NCBI GenBank assembly: GCA_964349095.1 | Contig: CAYGFD010000001.1 | Coordinates: forward strand, 13,867-56,580 | Direction: 5' to 3' | Origin: an uncultured Gammaproteobacteria bacterium | GTDB lineage: Bacteria > Patescibacteriota > Patescibacteriia > Veblenbacterales > UBA10138 | Length of the DNA: 42,714 bases | Shown here: positions 20,260 to 41,443 of the stretch, piece by piece | Position numbering within the stretch: position 1 is the first letter of the stretch | Layout of the letters: each line of letters starts with the position of its first letter | The notes under the pieces: generated by a model | Told to the model about the DNA's origin: nothing | Seen by the model: the letters and a program-made list of their open reading frames with translations, nothing else | Databases searched by the model: none | Translations under genes and position numbers: made by a program

Positions 20260-21117
20260 ATGCTAACACTGGCTGCGATAATAGCGCTTCTTTCCTACCT
20301 CATTATTACGGTAGCGACATCTGGCCACGCAATTAGTGTCACTATTACTCTTTATCTTCATCGTCAACTCACACATGGGTCAGTTAAGTTTAGGAATGGG
20401 CTTACAGTCATTATGCGGTTGTGGATATGGTTACACGCCGGAATTAATCGGTGCCAATGGGTAGCCGTACATGTTTATCATCATATTACTTCTGACACTC
20501 CAGACGACCCGCATTCACCACAACAGTACGGGACATTCTGTGTTCCGCCCGACAATACAATTAAACACAGACCAATCTGGCCGCTGAGACTTATTTGTCC
20601 ACAGGGTTTTGGCCTTTTTTGGACCAATCTCAAACAATATCTAAAAGCTGCTCGAAATCCCGAGATTGTGAATAAGTATGGGCAAATCTCACAAGACTGG
20701 TTAGAGCGTAAAGTGACAGGTAGGCTTTTTTGGTTAGGACCTTTTGTGTTATTGCCGTTACTCCACATCTTCTTGAGCGCCTGCCTATTTTATTTAATAG
20801 GCGTTAGCCTATGGTGGAGCTTGGTAGCCGGTCCTTTAGTGATGATTGGTGTGATTGTCTGGACCATATATAGTCAGGCATTTGTTAATAGTTATGGGCA
20901 TGCGGGCTTAATACGTGATGCACGAACACACGACTACAGTGTAGATATCAGGGGTGGCTGGTTAAAAAACTTGATTCTAAACTGGGTAGTTGTGGGAGAA
21001 CAAATTCACCACGGTCATCATACAAATCAAAAAAAATGGAACTTCGGTAAGGGCGATCTTGGAGGTTTATATATAAAAATATTAGTTCGCCTAGGTTTAG
21101 CGAGCGTGCAACGCTAG
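20260..21117 (+). CDS. Membrane fatty-acid (acyl-CoA/acyl-lipid delta-9-type) desaturase
   Basis: Three histidine boxes in the right order and context: HRQLTH, HVYHHITSDTPDDPHSP, GEQIHHGHH. Hydrophobic segments lie between them. Confidence 0.8.
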   Translation: MLTLAAIIALLSYLIITVATSGHAISVTITLYLHRQLTHGSVKFRNGLTVIMRLWIWLHAGINRCQWVAVHVYHHITSDTPDDPHSPQQYGTFCVPPDNTIKHRPIWPLRLICPQGFGLFWTNLKQYLKAARNPEIVNKYGQISQDWLERKVTGRLFWLGPFVLLPLLHIFLSACLFYLIGVSLWWSLVAGPLVMIGVIVWTIYSQAFVNSYGHAGLIRDARTHDYSVDIRGGWLKNLILNWVVVGEQIHHGHHTNQKKWNFGKGDLGGLYIKILVRLGLASVQR

Positions 21118-26307: not shown

Positions 26308-26362
26308 ATTATATCATAATTAAACTGATTTAATTGAATTAAGCAGTAAAAAGTGGTATAAT
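26308..26362. promoter_or_regulatory. Back-to-back extended -10 promoters for the divergent antiporter gene and the 26373 operon, both leaderless candidates
   Basis: Minus strand: TGaTATAAT (plus coordinates 26316-26308), then 6 nt to ATG 26301. Plus strand: TTGAAT 26334-26339, 17 nt, TGgTATAAT 26354-26362, then 10 nt to ATG 26373. Confidence 0.55.
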
Positions 26363-26372
26363 TTGTCATATT

Positions 26373-26837
26373 ATGCAAGATATTAGGAAAGAGTATAAAG
26401 GACGAGAGGTCACGATTCCAACAGGAGTAGAACAGTCAGAATTGAAGGAAGTTTTTCCAGATGCTCCTAAAGAAGCCGTGGATCAGAGAGTTGTTCCAGC
26501 GCCTCTACCAGTCGAGCCAGTTGCGAATATTAGTTCAAGTATATCCACCCCAGTTATAAGTGTTGATCCAATTCAAAAGAACGTGGAGAATATTTTACAG
26601 GAAGACATGTTGGATCTGTATAAAGAATTAAGTCCGATCGAACAACAACAGTTTAAAATAAAAGGTGAGGAAACCGCCAAAGCGATCAGCCAAATAGTTA
26701 GGGCAATGCAGGTAAAGATTCAAGACATCATAAATTTAATTAAAGATTGGTTAAAGGTGATACCGGGCGTTAAGAATTATTTTGTTGAGCAAGAGGCAAA
26801 AATAAAAGCGGAAAAAATATTAAAATTGCAAAAATAA
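26373..26837 (+). CDS. Hypothetical protein (154 aa, Pro-rich N-half, helical Lys/Glu-rich C-half)
   Basis: ORF with a consensus promoter. The stop overlaps the start of the next gene (ATAATG). I recognise no family. Confidence 0.6.
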   Translation: MQDIRKEYKGREVTIPTGVEQSELKEVFPDAPKEAVDQRVVPAPLPVEPVANISSSISTPVISVDPIQKNVENILQEDMLDLYKELSPIEQQQFKIKGEETAKAISQIVRAMQVKIQDIINLIKDWLKVIPGVKNYFVEQEAKIKAEKILKLQK

Positions 26838-29383
26838 TGAATGGGTTAGACTCGTCAACTCAATCTCTGAATAATTCTTTTATCGGATCGCCGTTAATGT
26901 GGTTGATAATTTTTTTGGTATTTGTTGTTGGAGTCATTGTTTTTCTTTTTATAATGAGAAGGTTAACTCGCAGGGTGTCACAAGTTGACCTAAGTTTGCA
27001 GATGCAGGCGCTGTTAATTACGGTACCTAAAGAGTCTTTTGGTTCAGACCAAGATAAATCATCGGGTCATCAGTTTATTGTTGAACAAATCGGTGTAGCA
27101 GAAGTGTTATGGTCAGCATTAGGGGGATTAAAGCCTGAGGGTGGGTTGAAGAATAAATTTAAAGTTAGGCAGGATCAAATATCTCTGGAAATAGTCCTTA
27201 AGGACGAAGTAATTTCTTTTTACGTAGTTGTACCGCCGGTTTTACGAAGTTTTATTGAACAACAAATTTTGTCTCATTATCCGCACGCAAATATTGAAGC
27301 GGTTGATGATTACAATATATTTCTAGCACGCGGTGCGGTCGCGGGCACATATTTAACATTTTCAAAGATGTCCGCTTTTCCTACCAGAACATTTAAGCAG
27401 TTGGAAGCCGATCCTTTAAATTCTATAACTAATTCCTTAAGTAAGATTCCAGCTGGCTCTGGCGCAGCAATTCAATTGGTTGTCCGATCTGCTAAATCAA
27501 GTTGGCGTAACGAGGGCGTCAGGATTGCTTCGGCGATGCAGCAGGGCAAAGCTTTAAATGAGGTTTCCCATGGCCAGGGTTTTGGAAAAATTGCCTCCGG
27601 CGCTTGGAAGTTAGGCAAAGAGATGTTTGGTTCTAGCACTAAAAAATCCGAAATTGAGAAAGCTAATAATAAATACCAACTGTCTCCTCTGGAGCAAGAG
27701 ATGATAAAGGGGATTGAAAATAAGGCTTCTAACGCTGGTTTGGACGTAAATATTCGCATCGTCACCGCCGCGCCCGATCAGGTATCTGCTGATCGGTACC
27801 TTTATGATATTGCCAATGCTTTTAATCAATTCAATGTTTATGAATACGGTAATAGTTATGTGGCAACCAAGCCGCATTCGCTGGATGATTTTATGACGGG
27901 TTTTATTCATCGCGAATTAAATGAAAGTAAAAAAATAGTTTTAAATACTGAAGAACTCGCGACGATCTATCATTTTCCGTTGCCATCTACTGAAACACCA
28001 AATATTAAGTGGCTAGGCGCTCGTCGAGCGGCCGCACCTGTAAATATGCCCGCTGCTGGTTTGCAATTAGGTATTAATTATTACCGAGGGCAGGAAGTTC
28101 CGGTCAAAATTAAAGATGATGATCGACGAAGACATGTCTATGTAATTGGTAAGTCTGGTACAGGTAAATCAGTTTTGTTGCAGAACATGATTGTGCAGGA
28201 TATTAAAGCTGGCCACGGTGTTGGTGTTATTGATCCGCACGGGGATTTAGTGGAAGGTATTTTGGAACAAGTACCGCCCGAGCGAGTTGACGATATAATT
28301 GTTTTTAACCCATCAGATGTCGAGCGACCAATGGGACTTAATATGCTTGAGTTTTCCGCTCCGGAGCAGATGGATTTTGCGGTTCAGGAAATGATTTCTA
28401 TTTTTTACAAATTATTTCCACCGGAAATGATTGGCCCAATGTTTGAACATAACATGAGAAATGTCATGTTAACCTTAATGGCTGATAAGGAATTCCCCGG
28501 CACGATTGCTGACATCCCACGCATGTTCACTGATAAAGAGTTTCAAAAGTATAAAGTGTCAAAATTGGGTGACCCAGTAGTTCGTGCTTTTTGGGAAAAG
28601 GAAATGGCGCAGACAACGGATTTTCACAAATCTGAAATGTTGGGTTATCTGATTTCCAAAGTTGGCAGGTTTGTTGAAAATGAAATGATGCGTAATATTA
28701 TCGGTCAACCAAAGTCAGGGTTTAATTTCCGAGAAGTTATGGATAATCAAAAGGTCGTTCTGGTTAATTTATCTAAAGGGACGACTGGTGAAGTAAATTC
28801 CTCGTTATTGGGATTGATAATTGTTTCAAAAATGCAGATGGCGGCAATGTCTCGTGCTAACTTGCCGGAATCAGAACGTAAGGATTTTTATTTATACATT
28901 GATGAGTTTCAAAACTTTATAACTGATTCCATAGCGACTATTTTATCTGAAGCAAGAAAGTACAGATTGGATTTAATAATTGCCAATCAATATCTTAAGC
29001 AATTAACTCAGGGTAATGACACTAAAATTAGGGATGCCGTTCTAGGAACGGTGGGCACATTAGTTAGTTTTAAAATTGGCGTTGAGGATGCTGAAGTATT
29101 GGCCAAGGAGTTTGAGCCTGTATTTAATGCCCACGATATTGTTAATATTGAGCAATATAACGCTTATGTTAAGCTTTTGGTTGATAACGCGCCGGCCAGA
29201 CCTTTTAATATGAGAACCTTACCACCAGGACGTGGAGACAAAAATATTGCTAAAAAAATTAAGGAATTATCAAGGCTTAAATATGGGAAAGCACGTGCCG
29301 AGGTACAGTCAGAAATAATGGAGAGAACAAGACTTGGTTCAGCAATCACTAAACAGGCGGTACCAACTGAGCGAACGCTATGA
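26837..29383 (+). CDS. Fused membrane-anchored N-module + VirD4/TraD-like (FtsK-HerA superfamily) P-loop NTPase, 848 aa
   Basis: TM helix LMWLIIFLVFVVGVIVFLFIM. The N-module is homologous to ORF 37331-38737. Walker A GKSGTGKS (nt 28149-28172), DPHGDL, Walker B FYLYIDEFQNF, LIIANQY sensor-like motif. The C-half aligns with ORF 38740-40515. Confidence 0.8.
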   Translation: MNGLDSSTQSLNNSFIGSPLMWLIIFLVFVVGVIVFLFIMRRLTRRVSQVDLSLQMQALLITVPKESFGSDQDKSSGHQFIVEQIGVAEVLWSALGGLKPEGGLKNKFKVRQDQISLEIVLKDEVISFYVVVPPVLRSFIEQQILSHYPHANIEAVDDYNIFLARGAVAGTYLTFSKMSAFPTRTFKQLEADPLNSITNSLSKIPAGSGAAIQLVVRSAKSSWRNEGVRIASAMQQGKALNEVSHGQGFGKIASGAWKLGKEMFGSSTKKSEIEKANNKYQLSPLEQEMIKGIENKASNAGLDVNIRIVTAAPDQVSADRYLYDIANAFNQFNVYEYGNSYVATKPHSLDDFMTGFIHRELNESKKIVLNTEELATIYHFPLPSTETPNIKWLGARRAAAPVNMPAAGLQLGINYYRGQEVPVKIKDDDRRRHVYVIGKSGTGKSVLLQNMIVQDIKAGHGVGVIDPHGDLVEGILEQVPPERVDDIIVFNPSDVERPMGLNMLEFSAPEQMDFAVQEMISIFYKLFPPEMIGPMFEHNMRNVMLTLMADKEFPGTIADIPRMFTDKEFQKYKVSKLGDPVVRAFWEKEMAQTTDFHKSEMLGYLISKVGRFVENEMMRNIIGQPKSGFNFREVMDNQKVVLVNLSKGTTGEVNSSLLGLIIVSKMQMAAMSRANLPESERKDFYLYIDEFQNFITDSIATILSEARKYRLDLIIANQYLKQLTQGNDTKIRDAVLGTVGTLVSFKIGVEDAEVLAKEFEPVFNAHDIVNIEQYNAYVKLLVDNAPARPFNMRTLPPGRGDKNIAKKIKELSRLKYGKARAEVQSEIMERTRLGSAITKQAVPTERTL

Positions 29384-29907
29384 TAATATTGCAACTTGTA
29401 TTTCTAATACTACTGCTGGTGGTATTAGGGAGTGTTGCTTTTGCAACTTTATCAGCGGCCCCTTGGGTTCCGCTACCAAAAAAAGACGTCCGGCGTATGG
29501 TGGCGCACGCCAACATTAAGCCAGGTGAAACGGTTTATGATTTAGGCTGTGGCGATGGCAGAGTACTAATTGAGGTTGCAAGAGCAATGAATGCAAAGGC
29601 TATTGGTTTTGAAATATCAATACTCATGTATGTAGTTGCCTTACTTAGGGTTTATTTATCTGGTCAGTCAAAGAACATTAAGATACACCTTAAAAATTTT
29701 TACAAAACAGACTTTAAAGAGGCCGATGTTATACTTTGTTTTTTAACACCCAATGCTATGCGTAATTTAAAGACCAAAGTCGAAAGTGAATTAAAATTCG
29801 GCGCCAGGTTTCTGAGTTACGTTTTTCCAATTAATGGCATAAAGCCTAAAGAGATATTTAAGGAACGCGAAACTGACGCAACTATATATTTATATTCTAC
29901 TGAATAA
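29380..29907 (+). CDS. Membrane-anchored class I SAM-dependent methyltransferase
   Basis: N-terminal TM (LQLVFLILLLVVLGSVAFATL), then APWVPLPKKDV...VYDLGCGDGRVLIEVA (motif I). ATGA overlap with the preceding gene. Confidence 0.8.
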   Translation: MIILQLVFLILLLVVLGSVAFATLSAAPWVPLPKKDVRRMVAHANIKPGETVYDLGCGDGRVLIEVARAMNAKAIGFEISILMYVVALLRVYLSGQSKNIKIHLKNFYKTDFKEADVILCFLTPNAMRNLKTKVESELKFGARFLSYVFPINGIKPKEIFKERETDATIYLYSTE

Positions 29908-29947: not shown

Positions 29948-29976
29948 TTGACAGTTGGGGTTGTTTTTTTTATACT
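29948..29976 (+). promoter_or_regulatory. Putative promoter (TTGACA-17-TATACT) followed by a very A-rich, SD-less leader of about 80 nt
   Basis: TTGACA 29948-29953, 17-nt spacer, TATACT 29971-29976. Confidence 0.5.
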
Positions 29977-30059: not shown

Positions 30060-30647
30060 ATGACAACCGACGGAAACAAACTAGTTTTAATTAGGCAATT
30101 AGTTGAGGCGGCAAAAAATAATTTAGATACCGCTACCCAGCTTTTAAAAAATTTAGGAGCGGAAACAATTGCCACCGGAAAAATTGAAGCGCCCGATACA
30201 GCAGTACAGCACACCGAACAGGGGGCTGTGATTATCGAGGGTGTTTTTGACGGTCAAAATATGGTTGGACCAGACGGAAAACTTTACAGTGTCCCAGCAA
30301 ACTACGCCTCCAAATCAAAATTGGTTGAAGGTGATTTGCTAAAACTTACTATTTCACCAGACGGGTCTTTTATTTATAAACAAATTGGTCCGGTTGAACG
30401 CGAGCGGTTGGTTGGTGTTTTAATGAAAGATGATCAAACAGAAGAATATAAAGTTTTAGCGCGGGGGACATACTACCGTATTTTACTTGCGAGCGTAACT
30501 TATTTTAAAGCTTCGTTAAGTGATGAAGTGGTTGTGTTGGTGCCTAAAGGTTCTGCCTCCACTTGGGCAGCTGTTGAAAATGTCATAAAGACCCATGAAA
30601 ACGGGGATATTGAGATGATATCAGGTGATGAGGAAGTGCCGGAATAA
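30060..30647 (+). CDS. Hypothetical protein (195 aa)
   Basis: Clean ORF with a helical N-terminus and a beta-rich middle (VIIEGVFDGQNMVGPDGKLYSVPANYASKSKLVEGDLLKL). I recognise no family. Confidence 0.6.
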   Translation: MTTDGNKLVLIRQLVEAAKNNLDTATQLLKNLGAETIATGKIEAPDTAVQHTEQGAVIIEGVFDGQNMVGPDGKLYSVPANYASKSKLVEGDLLKLTISPDGSFIYKQIGPVERERLVGVLMKDDQTEEYKVLARGTYYRILLASVTYFKASLSDEVVVLVPKGSASTWAAVENVIKTHENGDIEMISGDEEVPE

Positions 30648-30726: not shown

Positions 30727-32232
30727 ATGACCACTACTATTTATCGAAAGTATCGGCCGCAGTTTTTTTCTGACGTCATTGGTCAGGAGCATGTAACTAA
30801 GACTTTGCAAAATGAATTGGCTACCAATAAGTTGGCTCATGCTTATTTGTTTTGCGGTATTCGTGGGGTCGGTAAAACAACACTCGCTAGATTGCTAGCC
30901 AAGTCACTGAATTGTCAGAAAAGAAAAGCTGGGGATTATGAGCCATGTGATAAATGTGATTCGTGTTTAGCTATTAAAAGTGGTTCTTCTTTAGACTTGC
31001 TTGAATTAGACGCCGCCTCTAATAGAAGGATCGATGACATTAGAGAAATAAAAGAACATATTCCCTATGGTCCGGTTTCCAGTAATTACAAGGTCGTCAT
31101 CATCGACGAGGTCCACATGTTAACAACCGAAGCTTTCAATGCATTACTTAAAACTTTGGAAGAGCCCCCAACCCATACGATTTTCGTTTTAGCCACCACC
31201 GAGATTCATAAATTACCTGAAACCATTATTTCCCGTTGTCAGCGGTTTGATTTTCATAAAGTGCCGGCGCGGACCATTGCAACAAGACTTACTGAGATAG
31301 CTAAGTCAGAGGATGTAAAAATAGAGGATGATGTGCTAATGGAGGTGGCGCGACTTTCTGGTGGTTCCACTAGAGACGCCGAGAGTATGTTAGGAAAGTT
31401 ACTTTCACTGGGAGAGAAAAAAATAGGCATGACTGAAGCTTTATTGGTTTTACCTAGATCAGATATTGGGACAGCTTTAAAGTTGTTAGAGTTTTTAGTT
31501 AAGAAAAATGGAGCCGAAGCAGTGGGGTTGATTAATGGATTCTATGATGAGGGCGGAGATTTGGATTACTTACATAACCAGACAACTGAATTGATGAGGA
31601 AATTATTACTTATTAAGTTAGGCGGCGGTTTAACAAAGTTATCAAGTTATGATTTATCTCCTGAACAGGAAGAGCAATTGGTTAAGTTGGCGCAAATGAT
31701 AACAGCTCTGCAGGTTCAGCAAGTTTTGGAAGAGTGGCTTAGGGTCCAAAGTTTTAATAATCAAACCGATATTTTGCAGCTGCCTATAGAAATGGCAATT
31801 ATCTCTATTACTGAGAGAAATACTTCGAGCAGGGAAGTTATTGTAGAACGACCAGTTAGTAAACCAGAGTCGATGGTGACTTTTAAAAAGGAAACAGAGC
31901 CATTAACAACAGAGACTCCAGCCTCTCCAACAGTAATTGGCGATTGGTCGCAAGTGATTGATAAACTCAAGGCTTTTAATCATTCGCTGTCATTTATTTT
32001 GAGCTCGGCCGCTTTTGAGGGCGTCAAAGATGATAAGTTAGTGGTCAATTTCAATTACAAGCTACATTATGAAAGAGTAAACAGCGCCAAGATTAAACAG
32101 GTGATAGATGATGCTATTAAAAGTGTATATGGTAGGGCGTTAAAGTTTTCTCCTCGGGTTGTGGAAAACACACCAGTCAAAGATGATTTATTGTCGGCTG
32201 TTCTCAACACATTTGGTGGCAAAGTAAATTAA
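30727..32232 (+). CDS. dnaX: DNA polymerase III subunit gamma/tau
   Basis: YRPQFFSDVIGQEHV, Walker A GIRGVGKTT, Zn module CxxC..CxxC (CQKRKAGDYEPCDKCDSC), DEVHML, SRCQRFDF. Confidence 0.95.
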   Translation: MTTTIYRKYRPQFFSDVIGQEHVTKTLQNELATNKLAHAYLFCGIRGVGKTTLARLLAKSLNCQKRKAGDYEPCDKCDSCLAIKSGSSLDLLELDAASNRRIDDIREIKEHIPYGPVSSNYKVVIIDEVHMLTTEAFNALLKTLEEPPTHTIFVLATTEIHKLPETIISRCQRFDFHKVPARTIATRLTEIAKSEDVKIEDDVLMEVARLSGGSTRDAESMLGKLLSLGEKKIGMTEALLVLPRSDIGTALKLLEFLVKKNGAEAVGLINGFYDEGGDLDYLHNQTTELMRKLLLIKLGGGLTKLSSYDLSPEQEEQLVKLAQMITALQVQQVLEEWLRVQSFNNQTDILQLPIEMAIISITERNTSSREVIVERPVSKPESMVTFKKETEPLTTETPASPTVIGDWSQVIDKLKAFNHSLSFILSSAAFEGVKDDKLVVNFNYKLHYERVNSAKIKQVIDDAIKSVYGRALKFSPRVVENTPVKDDLLSAVLNTFGGKVN

Positions 32233-36160: not shown

Positions 36161-36189
36161 TTGACATAAATGTCATAATATGATATAAT
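36161..36189 (+). promoter_or_regulatory. Consensus sigma-70 promoter (TTGACA-17-TATAAT), -10 box 10 nt from the ATG (leaderless candidate)
   Basis: TTGACA 36161-36166, 17-nt spacer, TATAAT 36184-36189, ATG 36200. No SD. Confidence 0.7.
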
Positions 36190-36199
36190 TAAGTGGTAT

Positions 36200-37321
36200 A
36201 TGAGTGCAGATCAAGGTTCAATTCTTGATAAAATCATTTCAACACAACAGTTTTCCAGAAAGGAACATTTTCGTCCCCAGGAGGTTCTGGCAGAAATAAT
36301 GCGAAGTTTGAATGAAAGAGAGGCGCAAGTTGTTATGCGCCGTTTTGGTTTACCCGATAATGAGCACGAAACTCTGGAAAGTGTTGGTAAAAGCTTCAAT
36401 ATTACTCGCGAAAGGGTAAGGCAGATAGAAAAGTTGGTCATAAATAAGATAAAAGCGAACGATAAGATGCAGGATCTGCTAAGTCCGGTACGAGCGGTTA
36501 TAGTGGAAACTTTAGAAACAGAAGGCGGGGCCATGACCGAGGATCATTTACTTAAGTCACTAAATGACACATCTTCCCAAGATGTTCCTAAAAATACCCT
36601 GTCGTTTTATTTGAACTTTTTACTTGATGATGTCGTTTCTAAAATTAGTGATGAAAATTTTTTGGATGCCTGGATGCTCAAGACCGCGTCGCTTGATGCT
36701 CTGAAAAACCTCAGCAATATTGCAAAAACAATATTGGAAAAAGCTAATCGACCACTATCCGACGAAATTTTATGGCATGAAATGTCCAAAGTAGGGAATT
36801 TATTATCTCCTCTAGGTGACGCGCTTACCGATGTTCGGGTGACGGTTTCGCTTTTGGAAATTTCTAATGATATTAAGCGTAATCCGTATGGTGAATGGGG
36901 GTTAACTGTTTGGGACACTATCACTCCTAAGCGAATGAGTGATAAAATATACTTAGTACTAAAGAAAAAGGGGAGCCCCTTACATTTTAGGGAAATTACC
37001 AATCTAATTAACGATCAAAAGTTTGATCATAAACAGGCGCACGCACCTACGGTGCACAACGAGTTGATTTTGGATAGTCGTTTTGTGTTGGTGGGTCGTG
37101 GAATCTACGCTTTATCAGAGTGGGGATACAAGCCCGGCGCAGTGGCGGATGTGATCGTTGAGATTATAAAGCAAAAAGGTCCGCTTACTAGAGACGAGGT
37201 TGTGACTGAAGTATTATCGCGTAGAGTTGTACAAGCTGGTACAATTCATTTAGCTCTAACTAACAAAAAAATATTTATAAGAAACGAGCAGGGTAAATAT
37301 ACTCTAGCTAATCAAAATTAA
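36200..37321 (+). CDS. Sigma-70 region-4-like HTH fused to HARE-HTH-type winged-helix repeat(s). No sigma region 2.
   Basis: LNEREAQVVMRRFGLPDNEHETLESVGKSFNITRERVRQIEKLVINKIK is sigma region 4.2-like. KIYLVLKKKGSPLHFREITNLIN...TVHNELILDSRFVLVGRGIYALSEWGY is HARE-HTH-like (RpoE-delta N-domain). Weaker similar repeats end in GEWGLTVW and GKYTLAN. Confidence 0.8.
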   Translation: MSADQGSILDKIISTQQFSRKEHFRPQEVLAEIMRSLNEREAQVVMRRFGLPDNEHETLESVGKSFNITRERVRQIEKLVINKIKANDKMQDLLSPVRAVIVETLETEGGAMTEDHLLKSLNDTSSQDVPKNTLSFYLNFLLDDVVSKISDENFLDAWMLKTASLDALKNLSNIAKTILEKANRPLSDEILWHEMSKVGNLLSPLGDALTDVRVTVSLLEISNDIKRNPYGEWGLTVWDTITPKRMSDKIYLVLKKKGSPLHFREITNLINDQKFDHKQAHAPTVHNELILDSRFVLVGRGIYALSEWGYKPGAVADVIVEIIKQKGPLTRDEVVTEVLSRRVVQAGTIHLALTNKKIFIRNEQGKYTLANQN

Positions 37322-37330
37322 AACTAAACT

Positions 37331-38737
37331 ATGGATTGGGAGGCAATCCGGATCTCAATTGAACAATTTACTAATTTAGGCCCTTTAGAACAGCAGTGGT
37401 GGATATTCACACACGGCGGTTGGGCGCTTATTTTATTTATTGGAGTTCCGTTGTGGCTAAAGGAAAGGTTAAGGAGAAAACGCATCGAGCATATCGAGCA
37501 TACTAAGTATGTTTTGTTAGCCTTGGACGTACCAAAAGGTACCGAACAATCACCGAAGGCTGTGGAAAGTATTTTTACTGCTTTGGCTGGTGCGCATAGT
37601 CATGGTAATTTAATTGAGCATTATTGGGATGGCCATGTTCAGGAGCCATTTAGTTTTGAAATAGCTTCTCTAGGCGGTTATATTCAATTTTTTGTTAGAA
37701 CCCCAGAACAATTTCGTGATCTGGTGGAGGCGGCAATTTATGCTCAGTATCCGGACGCTGAAATTATTGAGAGTGAGGACTACGTCGATCGTATTCCGTC
37801 TTTTTATGATACTGAAGAATTTGACTTGTGGGGAACGGAATTAACATTTACTAATAAAAATTATTTTCCCATTAGAACTTATCCGGAATTTGAGCACACC
37901 GCTAGTGAAGATTTTAAGGATCCAATGGCTGGTATTTTGGAAATATTATCGCGTGTTCATCCAGATGAGGATGTTTGGTTGCAATTTTTAGTGACGCCGA
38001 TAGAAGATGAGTGGAAAGAAGAGGGTTTAGCGGTAGTAGAAAAAATGGCTGGCGTCACACATGCAGCTCATAAACCAGGGGTAGCGGCGAGAATGGGCAG
38101 TGGTTTAGTGGAAACACTGAGGGTAATGGGACACTCATTAATACCTTATAATAAGGATGAGGAGACTCATACCACAGAGAAATCTACGACCAATGATAAA
38201 AGAGTAACGCCTGGGCAGAAAGTAATAATGGAAGCGATTGAGAAGAAAATTGCTAAAATTGGATTTAGAGTAAAACCTAGAATGATTTATTGGGGAAGGC
38301 GCGAAACTTTCACTAAGGGCAGAGGAGTAGCCGCAGTTATGGGAGCTATTCAACAATTTAATACTTTAAATTTAAATGGTTTTAAACCATCAAAATTGGT
38401 TACTACTAAAGCCAACTATTTTTTGGTTAAAAGTAGGATAACAAAACGTCAGAGAAAAGTTTTGATTGCTTATAAACGTCGTGACCCGTTTCGAGGTGCT
38501 GGGCCAGGGATTATTTTAAATACTGAAGAATTAGCAACGGTATTCCATTTCCCAGTCGCAACAGTTAAAGCACCGTTGGTGAGAAAAACCGAGTTGAAAA
38601 AGTCGGAGCCACCTTTTGCACTCCCTGTGTTTAGAAGTCAGGGTCGGGTGCAGGTAGACTCTCAAGTTAATAGAGGTGATGAACCTTCTCGAAAGACGGG
38701 TGGCGGATCACCAACTAATTTACCGATTATTGAATAA
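37331..38737 (+). CDS. Membrane-anchored N-module protein (468 aa), homologous to the N-half of ORF 26837-29383
   Basis: TM WWIFTHGGWALILFIGVPLWL. Shared blocks are FSFEIASLGGYIQFFVRTPEQFRDLVEAAIYAQYPDAEIIESEDY vs ISLEIVLKDEVISFYVVVPPVLRSFIEQQILSHYPHANIEAVDDY, and IILNTEELATVFHFPVATVKAP vs IVLNTEELATIYHFPLPSTETP. Confidence 0.75.
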   Translation: MDWEAIRISIEQFTNLGPLEQQWWIFTHGGWALILFIGVPLWLKERLRRKRIEHIEHTKYVLLALDVPKGTEQSPKAVESIFTALAGAHSHGNLIEHYWDGHVQEPFSFEIASLGGYIQFFVRTPEQFRDLVEAAIYAQYPDAEIIESEDYVDRIPSFYDTEEFDLWGTELTFTNKNYFPIRTYPEFEHTASEDFKDPMAGILEILSRVHPDEDVWLQFLVTPIEDEWKEEGLAVVEKMAGVTHAAHKPGVAARMGSGLVETLRVMGHSLIPYNKDEETHTTEKSTTNDKRVTPGQKVIMEAIEKKIAKIGFRVKPRMIYWGRRETFTKGRGVAAVMGAIQQFNTLNLNGFKPSKLVTTKANYFLVKSRITKRQRKVLIAYKRRDPFRGAGPGIILNTEELATVFHFPVATVKAPLVRKTELKKSEPPFALPVFRSQGRVQVDSQVNRGDEPSRKTGGGSPTNLPIIE

Positions 38738-38739
38738 TT

Positions 38740-40515
38740 ATGGCAGTAGTAGACAAACAAAACGATATCGTACCGTTTGCGCAGACTAGTTTTCGCAACC
38801 ATAATGTTAAGTTTGGAATTAAACTCGATGATCGTCGTCGACATGTTTATATAGTTGGTAAGACTGGTATGGGAAAGACCGTAGTTTTGGAAAACATGAT
38901 TACGGCCGATATTCGAAATGGACACGGGTTAGCGGTAGTAGATCCACACGGCGATTTAGTGCAAAAAATTCTTGAAACTATTCCAGCCCATCGCATTAAC
39001 GATGTTATTTATTTCAATCCGTCAGATATTGATTACCCTGTTGCTTTCAACGTTTTAGAGCAAGTGGATCCTCGTTACCGTCACTTGGTAGCGTCTGGTC
39101 TGGTTGGTGTCTTTAAGAAAATTTGGGCAGATTCCTGGGGGCCGCGACTGGAGTACATATTGAGAAATGCCATTTTATCGTTATTGGAATATCCCAGCTC
39201 AACTTTGCTAGGTATCACCAGAATTTTAGTAGATAAAAAATATAGAAAGAAAGTTTTGGAACAGGTTACCGATCCGGTTGTTCGGTCGTTTTGGCTAGAC
39301 GAGTATGAGAACTACAATGAGAAATTTAGAGTTGAGGCAGTATCGCCAATCCAGAATAAGATAGGACAATTTTTATCGTCATCAATTATTAGAAATATTG
39401 TCGGTCAGCCCAAATCAACGCTCGATGTTAGAGATATAATGGATAATGAAAAAATACTTCTACTGGACTTGGCTAAGGGAAAGATCGGTGAAGATAACGC
39501 TTCGCTACTGGGAGCTATGATGATAACCAAGATGCAACTGGCCGCGATGAGTAGAATTGATATACCAGAAATGGAAAGAAAGGATTTCTTCCTATACGTT
39601 GATGAGTTCCAAAACTTTATAACAGATTCTTTTGCCAATATTTTATCGGAGGCGCGAAAATATCGCCTTAACTTAATTATGGCTCATCAATACATCGAGC
39701 AACTGGGCGATGTAGTAAAGGCCGCGGTATTTGGTAACGTCGGGACAATTATTTGTTTTAGAATCGGGGCTGAAGACGCGGAGTTTTTGGAAAAAGAATT
39801 TGAGCCCATATTCATGCAGAATGATTTAGTTAACTTGCCGAAGTTTCATGTTTATTTGAAATTAATGATTGATGGAATTACTTCTGACCCATTTAGCGCT
39901 AACACTCTTCCGCCTGTCGCGCAGTTGACTGGCAATAAAGCAAAAGTAATAAAAGTTTCTCGGGAACGCTATAGTAATAAGAGGGAAGAGGTTGAGGAAA
40001 AAATATTGCGATGGTCTGGTGTGGAGGATGTCTTTAAAGCCACGGCCCATCAGGAGAGTAAAAGCATTCCAGATGAGGATAAGATGTTTAAGTCCGCTCC
40101 AGCTAGAAAAAAAACAGAAAATAAAGAGTCGGAAGATTTGTTTGAGAGTCAGTGTTGGGTTTGTGGAAAAAAAGTTATGTTACCTTTTGAGCCTGATGGT
40201 GTGCGTCCGGTATATTGCAAGGAAGATATAAAGAAGGTGCGGCAGGGTCTGATTCCTAAACCAAAACCGCCATTGCAAGTAAAATCGCATCAAGTCGAGA
40301 AGCAGATTGTGGAGGATCAGGTAAAGCCGGTTAGCATCCCGCACGATGTAATAGTAAGGGATACAGGACCGTCGGTTTCATTGCAGGAGTTATTAAAAAA
40401 AGCCCAACCACGCCATGAGACTAAGAATATTTCTCAGTCGCCTCAGCCGATTTTAGCTGAGTCGTCTGACACTAGTTTAAGTAGCTTAAAGCCCGGGCAG
40501 GTAGTTCGTTTTTAA
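38740..40515 (+). CDS. VirD4/TraD-like (FtsK-HerA superfamily) P-loop NTPase (591 aa) with a Lys/Pro-rich, Cys-motif C-terminal tail
   Basis: DDRRRHVYIVGKTGMGKT (Walker A, nt 38858-38881), DPHGDL, FFLYVDEFQNF (Walker B), LIMAHQY. Long collinear similarity to the C-half of ORF 26837-29383. Tail CWVCGKKVMLPFEPDGVRPVYC. Confidence 0.85.
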   Translation: MAVVDKQNDIVPFAQTSFRNHNVKFGIKLDDRRRHVYIVGKTGMGKTVVLENMITADIRNGHGLAVVDPHGDLVQKILETIPAHRINDVIYFNPSDIDYPVAFNVLEQVDPRYRHLVASGLVGVFKKIWADSWGPRLEYILRNAILSLLEYPSSTLLGITRILVDKKYRKKVLEQVTDPVVRSFWLDEYENYNEKFRVEAVSPIQNKIGQFLSSSIIRNIVGQPKSTLDVRDIMDNEKILLLDLAKGKIGEDNASLLGAMMITKMQLAAMSRIDIPEMERKDFFLYVDEFQNFITDSFANILSEARKYRLNLIMAHQYIEQLGDVVKAAVFGNVGTIICFRIGAEDAEFLEKEFEPIFMQNDLVNLPKFHVYLKLMIDGITSDPFSANTLPPVAQLTGNKAKVIKVSRERYSNKREEVEEKILRWSGVEDVFKATAHQESKSIPDEDKMFKSAPARKKTENKESEDLFESQCWVCGKKVMLPFEPDGVRPVYCKEDIKKVRQGLIPKPKPPLQVKSHQVEKQIVEDQVKPVSIPHDVIVRDTGPSVSLQELLKKAQPRHETKNISQSPQPILAESSDTSLSSLKPGQVVRF

Positions 40516-40516
40516 T

Positions 40517-41443
40517 ATGAATAAAATTATCAAAAATATTTCAAGTATAAAAGTTCAGGGCGCAACCAAGGTGGCGTTCACATCTTTATTACTGGTCAAA
40601 AATTCTTTAAGAAAATTATCGTGGCCGCCTCAAAAAAAATCTTTTGATCTGGTTGCTGACCAGGCAGGCCTGATTGGTAGATTGCGATCTACTGAACCAC
40701 TGACGAGAAATTTAATCCGCTGGTTATTGCTTGAGGCCTTTACCATCTACAAGAAAAACAATAATCGAGAAAATTTTAATAAATATTTGAACGCGCTATA
40801 TAACAGGGCGATTGGACATTATGCCGATGTCGAAGATAGTATTGTTCGAACGGCTTTAAAAAAGATAAATGATGGTGATAATGTTTTTACGCATTGCCAC
40901 TCCAGTTTAGTTGAGAAGATATTAATCGCGGCTAAGCAATCTGGAAAAAAAATTACCGTGTATCATACAGAAACCAGACCTTTATTTCAAGGGAGGATTA
41001 CCGAGAAAAATTTGCGTAAGGCTGGTGTTAAGTCATTCATGGTTGCAGATTCAGCTGCCGCTTATTTAGTATCCAAGCACTCGGGTGACGATATTAGTAT
41101 TGATTTGGTTGTCTTGGGCGCAGACGCCCTCTTGGCTGATGGCAGTGTTATTAACAAGATTGGTAGTTTTGGTATCGCACTGGCTGCGTATGACTCTAAA
41201 ATACCAGTTTATGTTGCAAGTAGTTTGTTAAAGTTTGATATAGATTCCACAACTAAAATTGAAATGAGGAGTTCGGGGGAGATTTGGCCAAACCATCCTA
41301 GTAAAACACGTATTTTAAATTATGCCTTTGACCGCATCCCTGCTAAAATGATTACAGAAATTATTTGTGAAAACGGGGCTGTAAAGCCTAAATCGATTTC
41401 TAAATTAGCTAAAAAACAATATGCGAAATTATTTAATTATTAA
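40517..41443 (+). CDS. eIF-2B alpha/beta/delta-family isomerase, probable ribose-1,5-bisphosphate isomerase
   Basis: eIF-2B-family fold motifs (VFTHCHSS with Cys, VVLGADALLADGSVINKIGS with Asp). Size is about 308 aa and it lies next to RuBisCO. The start is 1 nt after the upstream stop. Confidence 0.8.
   Translation: MNKIIKNISSIKVQGATKVAFTSLLLVKNSLRKLSWPPQKKSFDLVADQAGLIGRLRSTEPLTRNLIRWLLLEAFTIYKKNNNRENFNKYLNALYNRAIGHYADVEDSIVRTALKKINDGDNVFTHCHSSLVEKILIAAKQSGKKITVYHTETRPLFQGRITEKNLRKAGVKSFMVADSAAAYLVSKHSGDDISIDLVVLGADALLADGSVINKIGSFGIALAAYDSKIPVYVASSLLKFDIDSTTKIEMRSSGEIWPNHPSKTRILNYAFDRIPAKMITEIICENGAVKPKSISKLAKKQYAKLFNY

Follow-up and report, generated by a model that had tools for sequence, protein, structure and literature searches.

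The 42.7-kb window (the whole stretch of DNA that was analysed) contains two related ATPase systems, both encoded on the forward strand. The fused system is a single gene (26837-29383) for an 848-aa protein with a transmembrane (TM) helix, a DUF8128 module and a T4CP-type ATPase domain. The split system includes a 468-aa N-module with a TM helix and DUF8128 (37331-38737) and a 591-aa T4CP-type ATPase (38740-40515). All three ORFs are present where an earlier note on this DNA had placed them, and the similarity that it had noticed between both halves of the fused ORF and the split proteins is significant in pairwise BLASTP alignments. Residues 27-405 of the fused protein align with the 468-aa ORF at 24% identity (93.6 bits, E=2e-24), and residues 416-828 align with the 591-aa ORF at 47% identity (404 bits, E=3e-135). 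The first alignment contains the blocks LLITVPKE/LLALDVPKG, ISLEIV.../FSFEIA... and NTEELATIYHFPLP/NTEELATVFHFPVA. In precomputed Pfam annotation, DUF8128 (PF26449) is common to relatives of the fused and the split N-modules.

The TM helix of the fused protein (aa 19-41, 26891..26959; read from the translation) falls within a long helix at aa 19-55 in the full-length AF2 model (pLDDT 84.1, pTM 0.67). It is followed by RRLTRR, and the positive-inside rule predicts a cytoplasmic location for the remainder of the protein. The DUF8128 module (27005..28051, aa ~57-405) ends with NTEELATIYHFP and a PxxMP linker motif. The T4CP-type (VirD4/TrwB) nucleotide-binding domain (28082..29326) contains a Walker A motif GKSGTGKS (28148..28171, aa 438-445), an all-alpha insertion (helices at aa ~509-622) and a Walker B motif YLYIDE (28889..28906, aa 685-690). 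Residues G438, G441, G443 and K444 of the former and D689 and E690 of the latter are invariant in 51 homologues. The C-terminal half scores above the Pfam gathering cut-offs of TrwB_AAD_bind (PF10412, 37.2 bits), T4SS-DNA_transf (PF02534, 32.2 bits) and TraG-D_C (PF12696), and likewise of DUF87. The family is already known to databases as a combination of DUF8128 and T4CP domains.

The split N-module (AF2 model: pLDDT 82.4, pTM 0.77) has a disordered tail with two PxxLP motifs; this conserved 36-aa tail is its own, and the second motif is nearly invariant. Only 2 nt separate the two split genes (TAA-tt-ATG, 38735-38742). The split ATPase carries a Walker A motif GKTGMGKT (nt 38857-38880, aa 40-47) and a C-terminal zinc ribbon CxxC-x17-CxxC (nt 40141-40224, aa 468-495; Pfam zf_Tbcl_2). 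The earlier note had described the Cys-motif tail as missing from the fused copy, and a Pfam scan agrees; the tail is present in 36 of 54 split ATPases and in none of 120 fused homologues.

The fused gene is the second of a three-gene unit (26373-29907) that is preceded by a promoter-like site, TTGAAT-17-TATAAT with TG (26334..26362), which comes from a consensus scan alone and is not evidence of function. The first gene (26373..26837) encodes a 154-aa soluble helical protein and ends in a stop codon that overlaps with the start of the ATPase gene (TAATG, 26835-26839). Homologues of this small protein lie directly upstream of the fused gene in 50 of 66 metagenomic loci and in loci L001-L003, mostly at an intergenic distance of 26 nt or less. 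Its C-terminal motif, WLKxIPGVNxFFLEQEAKIK, is conserved, and its family has at least 3,997 members and no Pfam or NCBIfam matches. The fused gene and this small conserved helical protein form a tight unit. The third gene (29380..29907), joined to the ATPase gene by an ATGA overlap (29380-29383), encodes a 175-aa TM-anchored class I SAM methyltransferase (Pfam Methyltransf_31/25) that reaches 85.5 bits against the NCBIfam archaeal protein-lysine methyltransferase model, under the cut-off of 200. It adjoins the fused gene in only 11 of 71 loci and is a lineage-specific neighbour outside the core of the fused system. Both flanking genes had been singled out before; the helical protein stands as a conserved partner, and the methyltransferase does not. 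Further downstream are a 195-aa conserved protein (30060..30647; found in 31/64 loci at 41-76% identity, with no family match in Pfam or NCBIfam) and dnaX (30727..32232; DNA polymerase III gamma/tau by its Pfam labels), which is kept downstream of the fused locus in 35 of 51 loci.

Ahead of the split operon is a perfect sigma-70-type promoter-like site, TTGACA-17-TATAAT with TG (36161..36189), again from a consensus scan alone. It is followed by a gene for a 373-aa DNA-binding protein with Pfam matches to Sigma70_r4 and HARE-HTH (36200..37321); such a gene was found upstream in 44 of 76 split loci. The split ATPase gene lies directly downstream of the N-module gene in 50 of the 72 independent loci with enough flanking sequence. 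In the window and in loci L004, L005, L017 and L024 the pair is followed by an IF-2B-family gene, possibly a ribose-1,5-bisphosphate isomerase, and in L004 also by a glycosyl-transferase-3/PYNP_C phosphorylase-family gene. The IF-2B gene is linked to the split pair in only 3 of 71 loci.

Database proteins related to the fused form number more than 5,000, and those related to the split N-module more than 2,300. The named relatives of both are nearly all from Patescibacteria (CPR), the group to which the genome had been correctly assigned in the earlier note. That note had spoken of a natural Rosetta-stone fusion; the fused architecture is not special to this genome but is the common form and may be the ancestral state. 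The tree of ATPase cores shows a clean bipartition into fused and split groups, with a median identity of 72% and 68% inside the groups and 46% between them. Since the cores separate so cleanly, the duplication is, as judged from these sequences, old. Each form also has its own, different, conserved chromosomal neighbourhood, which bears out the proposal of two old, specialised systems.

The DUF8128 model of the split paralogue finds TrwK/VirB4 chains as its top 12 matches in the PDB (E=2.9e-4 to 3.4e-3, prob 0.97-0.99). In BFVD it matches phage G gp156 (E=3.9e-17), and it also matches gp155 of this phage (E=1e-5), which scores VirB4-like in NCBIfam. The full-length fused model is collinear with full-length TrwK/VirB4 over 930 columns (Foldseek, E=3.7e-15), and both follow a two-domain plan with an N-terminal alpha/beta domain and a C-terminal RecA-like ATPase. 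In its predicted fold, DUF8128 resembles the N-terminal domain of VirB4/TrwK, and the resemblance is at the level of fold only: TM-scores to TrwK are low (~0.3), hhalign against TrwK gives Prob 1%, and none of 51 members matches a VirB4 Pfam family, even with E-values of up to 10 allowed. The genes virB3, virB6 and virB8 are absent near the fused gene.

In sequence the fused ATPase is nearer to TrwB (hhalign Prob 95.6, E=1.2e-8, 254 columns) than to TrwK (Prob 9.7). The alignment with TrwB runs through the P-loop, the all-alpha region and Walker B, and superposition of the full-length model by Foldseek gives TMt 0.62-0.68. Like the T4CPs (VirD4, TrwB, TraD), the fused protein is N-terminally membrane-anchored. 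In contrast to them, it has one TM helix where T4CPs usually have two, a ~350-aa DUF8128 module between the anchor and the ATPase, and no relaxase or T4SS genes nearby; its gene lies on the chromosome, is near-universal in the phylum and has been duplicated there, and its scores are far below all curated NCBIfam T4CP models (e.g., 46.8 bits against a cut-off of 366). The gene product is a relative of the "coupling" ATPases found in bacterial machines for DNA transfer. Within the explanation that we consider best as a whole, and hold with moderate confidence, it is an ATPase with a single-pass membrane anchor that belongs to the VirB4/VirD4 branch of the FtsK-HerA P-loop motors.

Homologues of the fused protein were also found in phages and plasmids. 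Phage G gp156 (hhalign Prob 100, E=8.6e-41, 745 columns) is homologous over its full length, DUF8128 and ATPase included, and so is an 800-aa protein of C. sporogenes pNPD7 (Prob 99.4, E=5.7e-21); orf201 of phage 0305phi8-36 aligns over aa 127-790. Natrinema pNATPE01 has a haloarchaeal split version, in which the gene for a 994-aa T4CP-like ATPase directly follows one for a 382-aa DUF8128-like protein. In phage G, gp156 has the VirB4-like gp155 as its neighbour and a nicking protein close by. The Clostridium gene overlaps a TrbC/VirB2 pilin gene, and the "DNA translocation operon" that contains orf201 also encodes a MobC-like relaxase and a VirB6-like protein (PMC3357382). That the N-terminal domain is unlike that of VirD4 was already remarked by Pathria et al. 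2012 (PMC3357382). The phage coupling ATPases (0305phi8-36 orf201, SPO1 gp27.4 and phage G gp156; PMC3357382) differ from the fused protein in that they have no N-terminal TM helix, sit with MobC-like relaxase, VirB4-like and VirB6-like genes, are dispensable for laboratory growth, and share only ~20-24% identity with it. The two domains form one protein in thousands of Patescibacteria sequences, in Bacillus phages and on a Clostridium plasmid, and in Patescibacteria and on the Natrinema plasmid they also occur as neighbouring genes. DUF8128 and the ATPase are thus one functional unit, as had been argued from the window.

A survey of 3,035 Patescibacteria genomes (Quinonero-Coronel et al. 2025, PMC12102498) reported VirB4 in 2,417 assemblies (2,474 genes, or about one per VirB4-positive genome) and T4CP-like genes in 2,918, with 5,713 copies, only 148 of them near virB4. 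These genes come from the same phylum and have the same annotation as ours, and about two copies per genome match the fused and split systems seen here. In Southlakia (Wang et al. 2023, PMC10633639), SEML1_0142 and SEML1_0293 are look-alikes by architecture and synteny, not by sequence comparison. Upstream of SEML1_0142 is a gene for a 139-aa hypothetical protein, just as the fused ATPase gene follows that of its 154-aa partner, and SEML1_0293, like the split pair, lies downstream of a Sigma70_r4 and HARE-HTH protein. In both, which are longer proteins (1,019 and 921 aa), the ATPase domain starts at ~aa 360-400. As the sigma-linked gene is a single ORF (921 aa) in Southlakia and two ORFs in the window, the split pair probably arose by fission.

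For the fused ATPase we infer substrate, oligomeric state and partners as follows. DUF8128 may be a membrane-proximal scaffold and assembly domain, since its predicted fold resembles the VirB4 N-terminal domain. The ATPase domain would probably form a TrwB-like hexameric ring on the cytoplasmic face of the membrane and spend ATP on selecting and pushing a polymer substrate, more likely DNA or nucleoprotein, possibly protein. The substrate would enter an envelope channel. The likeliest candidate is the T4SS of VirB4/VirB6/pilin type, which the majority of Patescibacteria encode at other loci and whose gene cluster would have no coupling protein of its own; the T4SS cluster of Southlakia has no recognisable one (PMC10633639). 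A T4CP-like motor serving the Patescibacteria T4SS is the best explanation as a whole, and we rate it somewhat better than even. The T4SS and relaxase genes beside the phage and Clostridium homologues speak for it. Several observations speak against it: the window has no T4SS, relaxase or integrase gene and its neighbouring genes are of housekeeping type, T4CP-like genes occur in more genomes than VirB4 and rarely near virB4, genomes carry about two paralogues but only about one virB4 where VirB4 is present, DUF8128 resembles the VirB4 N-terminal domain in fold only, and one TM helix per protomer is insufficient for a channel. Published Southlakia Tn-seq data cut both ways: the essential call for the pair SEML1_0141/0142 favours the T4SS reading, and the dispensability of SEML1_0293, although the T4SS is essential, counts against it.

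The same survey counts suit another reading, in which both systems are T4SS-independent housekeeping motors, i.e., exapted T4CP-like ATPases acting through another channel in, for example, DNA/RNA uptake for nucleotide salvage, chromosome handling at division or other polymer export. T4CP-like genes are almost universal (2,918/3,035), and the survey authors themselves raised exaptation (PMC12102498). The unusually conserved ATPase cores (~70% median identity per paralogue group), the zinc-ribbon tail of the split ATPase and the conserved chromosomal neighbours (dnaX and the sigma_r4/HARE-HTH gene) point the same way, and the IF-2B and L004 phosphorylase-family genes suggest nucleotide salvage. 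However, the IF-2B link is rare, the dnaX gene order may merely mirror the general synteny of small genomes, and genomes seemingly without VirB4 could reflect MAG incompleteness. Moreover, all non-Patescibacteria homologues with informative context adjoin T4SS or relaxase components, and we regard the housekeeping role as possible but doubtful.

It is improbable that the locus is a part or remnant of an integrated mobile element (ICE or prophage) with its own self-transfer coupling protein, even though homologues occur in Bacillus phages, Clostridium plasmids and haloarchaeal megaplasmids and one adjoins an integrase gene in the temperate phage D6E. No gene for an integrase or relaxase, and none of phage or plasmid type, is present in the window, whose GC content is flat (0.37-0.44). 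The same chromosomal synteny is kept among genomes whose orthologues share only 44-64% identity. When viral contigs were scanned with the N-module profile, nothing real emerged, and in Southlakia the look-alike family is marked as both core and enriched in Patescibacteria. Still less credible is a MADS-like or HerA-type anti-phage defence formed by the ATPase and the adjacent methyltransferase, as PADLOC matches at the domain level would suggest (both ATPases match mad8, at E=5e-17 and 5e-20, the methyltransferase matches mad2, at E=5e-18, and HerA models match weakly). The MADS operon comprises eight genes, and its N6 DNA methyltransferase has 492 aa (bioRxiv 10.1101/2023.03.30.534895); six of the eight mad genes are missing here, and our 175-aa TM-anchored enzyme, nearest to protein-lysine methyltransferases, differs in type and size and has no conserved link to the ATPase. 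Near-universal, syntenic and highly conserved core genes also differ from defence islands. An assembly or frameshift artefact in the fused ORF or the split pair, for which we found no support beyond the short spacing of the split genes, is rejected with near certainty: both arrangements recur in thousands of independent assemblies, the break sits within the linker between the domains, the split N-module ends in a conserved tail of its own, and the split ATPases form their own clade with their own zinc-ribbon tail.

The abundance of T4CP-like genes in Patescibacteria has already been published (PMC12102498); DUF8128 and the fused/split pair are described in neither PMC12102498 nor PMC10633639. 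The fused and split systems are two ancient paralogues that Patescibacteria keep on the chromosome, and the two probably serve different substrates or partners.

The fused ORF (26837-29383, plus strand, 848 aa) encodes in one chain what the window also carries as two adjacent genes, the split N-module ORF (37331-38737, plus strand, 468 aa) and the split ATPase ORF (38740-40515, plus strand, 591 aa). In BLASTP comparisons, residues 27-405 of the fused protein align with the 468-aa protein at 24% identity (E=2e-24), and residues 416-828 align with the 591-aa protein at 47% identity (E=3e-135). The similarity of the two halves to the split pair, proposed in the earlier note from matching blocks, is thus far beyond chance, and the blocks quoted there all lie inside the alignment of residues 27-405. 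The junctions also read as described there: the last A of the TAA stop codon of the upstream 154-aa ORF is the first base of the ATG at 26837, and the methyltransferase gene starts in an ATGA overlap with the fused ORF at 29380. The split genes are separated by TAA-tt-ATG. The fused form is not, however, a special fusion in one genome, as had been supposed, but the common architecture of a very large family. The fused and split proteins are a variant of the type IV coupling protein (T4CP; VirD4/TrwB/TraD) or VirB4 kind of ATPase, and this family is already catalogued. A conserved PxxΦP motif and the first beta-hairpin of the ATPase are joined by a linker, and it is in this linker that the split genes are broken. 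An additional tail of the split N-module ends in a second, nearly invariant PxxLP motif; we speculate that this tail may dock the ATPase in trans. Of the two forms, the split one is probably derived.

The C-half of the fused protein scores above the Pfam gathering cut-offs for PF10412 (TrwB_AAD_bind, 37.2 bits, cut-off 20.5), PF02534 (T4SS-DNA_transf, 32.2 bits, cut-off 20.1) and DUF87, and far below those of all curated NCBIfam T4CP/VirB4 models, the best being TIGR03743 with 46.8 bits against a cut-off of 366. The Walker A motif GKSGTGKS (aa 438-445) and the Walker B residues D689 and E690 are invariant in 51 fused homologues. By hhalign probability, the ATPase is nearer to TrwB than to TrwK/VirB4 of the R388 type IV secretion system (T4SS): the profile of these 51 homologues aligns with TrwB over 254 columns (Prob 95.6, E=1.2e-8), whereas its alignment with TrwK/VirB4 (Prob 9.7) is limited to the P-loop. 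The AlphaFold2 model has an all-alpha insertion of seven helices (aa 509-622) between the Walker A and B motifs, and both the TrwB alignment and the Foldseek superposition cover it; the C-half of the full-length model matches TrwB structures in the PDB with TMt of 0.62-0.68. The fused protein thus has in common with T4CPs the RecA-like domain with Walker A/B and the all-alpha insertion. The T4CP anchor directly precedes the ATPase; the fused protein has a single transmembrane (TM) helix (aa 19-41), with approximately 350 residues of DUF8128 between it and the ATPase. By sequence and predicted fold, we assign the ATPase to the T4CP type. No virB3, virB6 or virB8 neighbours and no relaxase or mating-pair-formation T4SS genes were found in the 42.7-kb window.

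The N-half had no match in a Pfam or NCBIfam scan, the Pfam copy scanned being one without the PF26449 (DUF8128) model. Precomputed annotation assigns PF26449 to the database entry identical to the fused protein (P0001), to all listed fused homologues and to 118 of the 120 listed split homologues. At the start of both N-modules a hydrophobic helix precedes an Arg/Lys cluster, and the positive-inside rule would place the remainder of the protein in the cytoplasm. AlphaFold2 models built from homologue alignments had a pLDDT of 82.4 and a pTM of 0.77 for the split N-module and a pLDDT of 84.1 and a pTM of 0.67 for the full fused protein. In a Foldseek search of the PDB, the top 12 matches of the N-module model were TrwK/VirB4 chains of the R388 T4SS (E=2.9e-4 to 3.4e-3, prob 0.97-0.99), with approximately 440 aligned columns and TM-scores of just about 0.3. 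The full-length model aligns collinearly with full-length TrwK over 930 columns (E=3.7e-15). A link between DUF8128 and the VirB4 N-terminal domain at the sequence level was not found: the DUF8128 profile reached just Prob 1% in hhalign against TrwK, the VirB4 Pfam family (CagE_TrbE_VirB) was absent from 51 DUF8128 proteins at E up to 10, and a PDB profile search returned zero matches. The likeness that remains is one of fold only. DUF8128 and the VirB4 N-terminal domain are plausibly related, the similarity of the modelled folds being of moderate strength.

The fused form, of approximately 850 aa, has more than 5,142 database relatives, and the DUF8128-only form more than 2,324. Among 1.84 billion representative proteins, the DUF8128 profile matched 3,366 clusters at 50% identity. 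Contigs of 40,498, 21,908, 23,254, 876,493 and 129,238 bp recur in both the fused and the DUF8128-only lists, a hint that the two forms share contigs. When GTDB species-representative genomes were scanned, all those retrieved were Patescibacteria-type MAGs, from the Kerfeld-, Buchanan-, Magasanik-, Uhr-, Kuenen- and Falkowbacteria and Paceibacter. Many representatives carrying the locus (homologous loci L009, L017, L023, L038, L044, L046-L048 and others, one of them a 931-kb chromosome) are titled 'uncultured Gammaproteobacteria bacterium', probably a placeholder taxonomy. In a neighbor-joining tree of 34 fused and 55 split ATPase cores, the two forms separate cleanly; the fused cores have a median identity of 72% to one another and the split cores one of 68%, whereas between the groups the median is 46% (maximum 52%). 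The earlier suggestion that the two copies are old is borne out by this tree and by the divergence between the groups. An attempt to root the tree with phage, plasmid, archaeal and TrwB outgroups met identities of 18-29%, at which distances saturate, and monophyly of the fused and split cores together was recovered in just 42 of 100 bootstraps. The fused and split forms are two ancient paralogous systems in housekeeping chromosomal contexts.

At the fused locus, the gene for a small helical protein is followed by the ATPase and then by dnaX, and in some loci a methyltransferase, a 195-aa protein or both come between these last two. Counted over 80 metagenomic loci, with denominators set per gene, the neighbours of the fused gene include the small protein (50/66), the methyltransferase (11/71), the 195-aa protein (31/64) and dnaX (35/51). 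The small partner (26373-26837, plus strand, 154 aa) has a family of at least 3,997 members, 150-200 aa in length, which are all annotated as 'hypothetical', lack a Pfam model and have in common a strongly conserved C-terminal motif, WLKxIPGVNxFFLEQEAKIK; a profile search found matches in close lineages only. The TM-anchored methyltransferase (29380-29907, plus strand, 175 aa), dismissed as a core partner at its frequency of neighbourhood, is closest to archaeal protein-lysine N-methyltransferases (85.5 bits, under the cut-off). The 195-aa protein (30060-30647, plus strand), whose gene separates the ATPase unit from dnaX, gave no match in Pfam or NCBIfam; its identity in related loci is 41-76%, in the nearest relatives it is conserved more than its neighbours, and a promoter-like site is found at 29948-29976. 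Elsewhere in the window, a fatty-acid desaturase family protein (20260-21117, plus strand) is encoded in an apparently reduced Patescibacteria genome, which is unexpected if the organism makes no lipids of its own.

The split locus has the order Sigma70_r4 and HARE-HTH protein, DUF8128 protein, zinc-ribbon ATPase. The sigma-like protein (36200-37321, plus strand, preceded by a perfect TTGACA-17-TATAAT site at 36161-36189) is upstream in 44/76 loci, and the ATPase is directly downstream of the DUF8128 gene in 50/72. A zinc ribbon was found in 36 of 54 split ATPases vs none of 120 fused proteins. In the other 22 of the 72 loci with enough flank (L028, L041, L043, L045, L047, L048, L052-L054, L057, L058, L060, L063, L069, L073-L075, L077, L078, L080, L081 and L083; those named by lineage are mostly Magasanikbacteria), the DUF8128-only gene has no T4CP-like ATPase beside it, and the partner must be encoded elsewhere or missing. 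DUF8128 is carried by or paired with the ATPase, and the association is obligate; the view of the earlier note that the N-module and the ATPase work as a single unit stands. One nucleotide after the split ATPase gene begins an IF-2B-family gene (40517-41443, plus strand), which may encode a ribose-1,5-bisphosphate isomerase. In locus L004 (9346-11780), an IF-2B-family gene is followed by a glycosyl-transferase-3/PYNP_C phosphorylase-family gene, an arrangement that suggests nucleotide salvage; the link between IF-2B and the split ATPase is weak, being found in 3/71 loci.

Both arrangements appear to be mirrored in Southlakia epibionticum, judging orthology by architecture and synteny only. SEML1_0142 (1,019 aa, P-loop domain at aa 381-800), a member of a core Patescibacteria-enriched family, is called essential by Tn-seq, as is SEML1_0141, a 139-aa hypothetical protein encoded 12 nt upstream (Wang et al. 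2023, PMC10633639). SEML1_0293 (921 aa, PF10412 at aa 402-719) is non-essential, and SEML1_0294, directly upstream of it, is an essential 349-aa Sigma70_r4 and HARE-HTH protein; the main-text discussion of that study does not mention these genes (PMC10633639). If the orthology is true, epibiotic growth would require the fused system together with its small partner, the sigma-linked one would be dispensable, and the split pair of the window would be the product of fission of one gene.

Relatives outside Patescibacteria were found in phages, plasmids and archaea. A scan of viral contigs with the N-module profile gave one marginal fragment, and phage homologues surfaced solely through Foldseek against viral models (BFVD) and tblastn against phage records. 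The N-module model matched the viral models of phage G gp156 (E=3.9e-17, TMq 0.49), JL (1.6e-15) and Slash (2.3e-13), much more strongly than it matched PDB entries. With the fused protein as query, tblastn matched 61 phage records, 54 of them from Bacillus phages; gp156 of Bacillus phage G is covered at aa 61-813 (E=3e-42), and 0305phi8-36 ORF201 and D6E ORF23 over approximately 80%. Against the fused-protein profile A2, gp156 is a full-length homologue (hhalign Prob 100, E=8.6e-41, 745 columns). The homology of the phage orf201/gp156 family to the fused protein extends across the N-terminal domain and the ATPase. Unlike the fused protein, gp156 lacks the TM helix, its residue 6 aligning with profile column 66, and the phage family has relaxase, VirB4-like or VirB6-like neighbours, which are absent from the window. 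In phage G the homologue is paired with the upstream gp155, a truncated VirB4-like gene (NCBIfam CD1110 family, 174 bits), and an SPO1-27.3-like nicking protein is encoded nearby. Orf201 and SPO1 gp27.4 have been assigned the part of coupling ATPase in a phage 'DNA translocation operon'; this operon also encodes a VirB6-like protein and a MobC-like relaxase, and under laboratory conditions it is dispensable (Pathria et al. 2012, PMC3357382). The homologues in phage G (L167, 4321-8463) and D6E (L168, 5785-8043) are annotated as 'lipid A export ATP-binding/permease MsbA', which looks like a misannotation.

Plasmid relatives were found by the N-half alone. On Natrinema pNATPE01, a gene for a 994-aa T4CP-like ATPase directly follows a DUF8128-like gene of 382 aa (hhalign Prob 88.7), a pair that is a split form in an archaeon. 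On C. sporogenes pNPD7, the gene for an 800-aa full-length homologue (Prob 99.4, E=5.7e-21) overlaps a TrbC/VirB2 pilin gene. Given the phage, plasmid and archaeal homologues, the two-module unit spans the domains of life in both fused and split forms. In mobile elements it is accompanied by T4SS and relaxase genes. By tblastn, the window, phage and R388 loci have no neighbours in common other than the ATPases themselves.

The fused protein combines a TM anchor with two modules, one of them a T4CP-type ATPase whose catalytic motifs are intact. It may assemble at the membrane into a TrwB-like hexameric ring, in which DUF8128 would act as a scaffold like the VirB4 N-terminal domain and ATP would drive delivery of DNA or another polymer. 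In the reading that we favour, the protein is the ATPase that couples or energises the Patescibacteria T4SS, because the Southlakia T4SS cluster is without a recognisable coupling protein (PMC10633639) and every informative homologue outside Patescibacteria adjoins T4SS or relaxase genes. An exapted motor working independently of the T4SS is the main rival. Published counts point that way: 5,713 T4CP-like genes occur in 2,918 of 3,035 Patescibacteria genomes (about 96%, about two copies each), VirB4 is present in 2,417 genomes, and 148 of the 5,713 genes are near virB4 (PMC12102498). The ATPase genes are thus far from virB4, commoner than VirB4 and present in two copies per genome, and the ATPase cores are strongly conserved. 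A defence system of the MADS/HerA kind is poorly supported or excluded: MADS is an eight-gene mad1-mad8 operon with an N6 DNA methyltransferase, whereas the window has matches to mad8 and mad2 at the domain level only (the PADLOC mad2 match being the gene at 29380-29907) and lacks the rest, and the low frequency of the methyltransferase beside the fused ATPase also argues against it. A mobile-element remnant and an assembly or frameshift artefact are likewise poorly supported or excluded.

Patescibacteria, which are dependent on host cells, account for a large part of bacterial diversity. The T4CP-like ATPase is among their most conserved phylum-enriched proteins, and the interest lies in the role of a near-universal, duplicated and possibly essential motor. 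Both copies are ancient and wired separately, in phages and plasmids this two-module unit accompanies DNA-transfer genes, and a published Tn-seq table holds syntenic look-alikes of opposite essentiality. These results sharpen a vague annotation into testable form and bear on the divergence of VirB4 and VirD4. We suggest, tentatively and with considerable doubt, that the family is a third lineage beside VirB4 and VirD4 that kept a VirB4-like N-terminal domain, with two near-universal paralogues, one of them essential together with its small partner, and that it acts either as a T4SS component or as an independent nucleic-acid motor. If so, it would be the missing energising or coupling component of the T4SS, or a motor supplying nucleotide-auxotrophic cells with nucleic acid.
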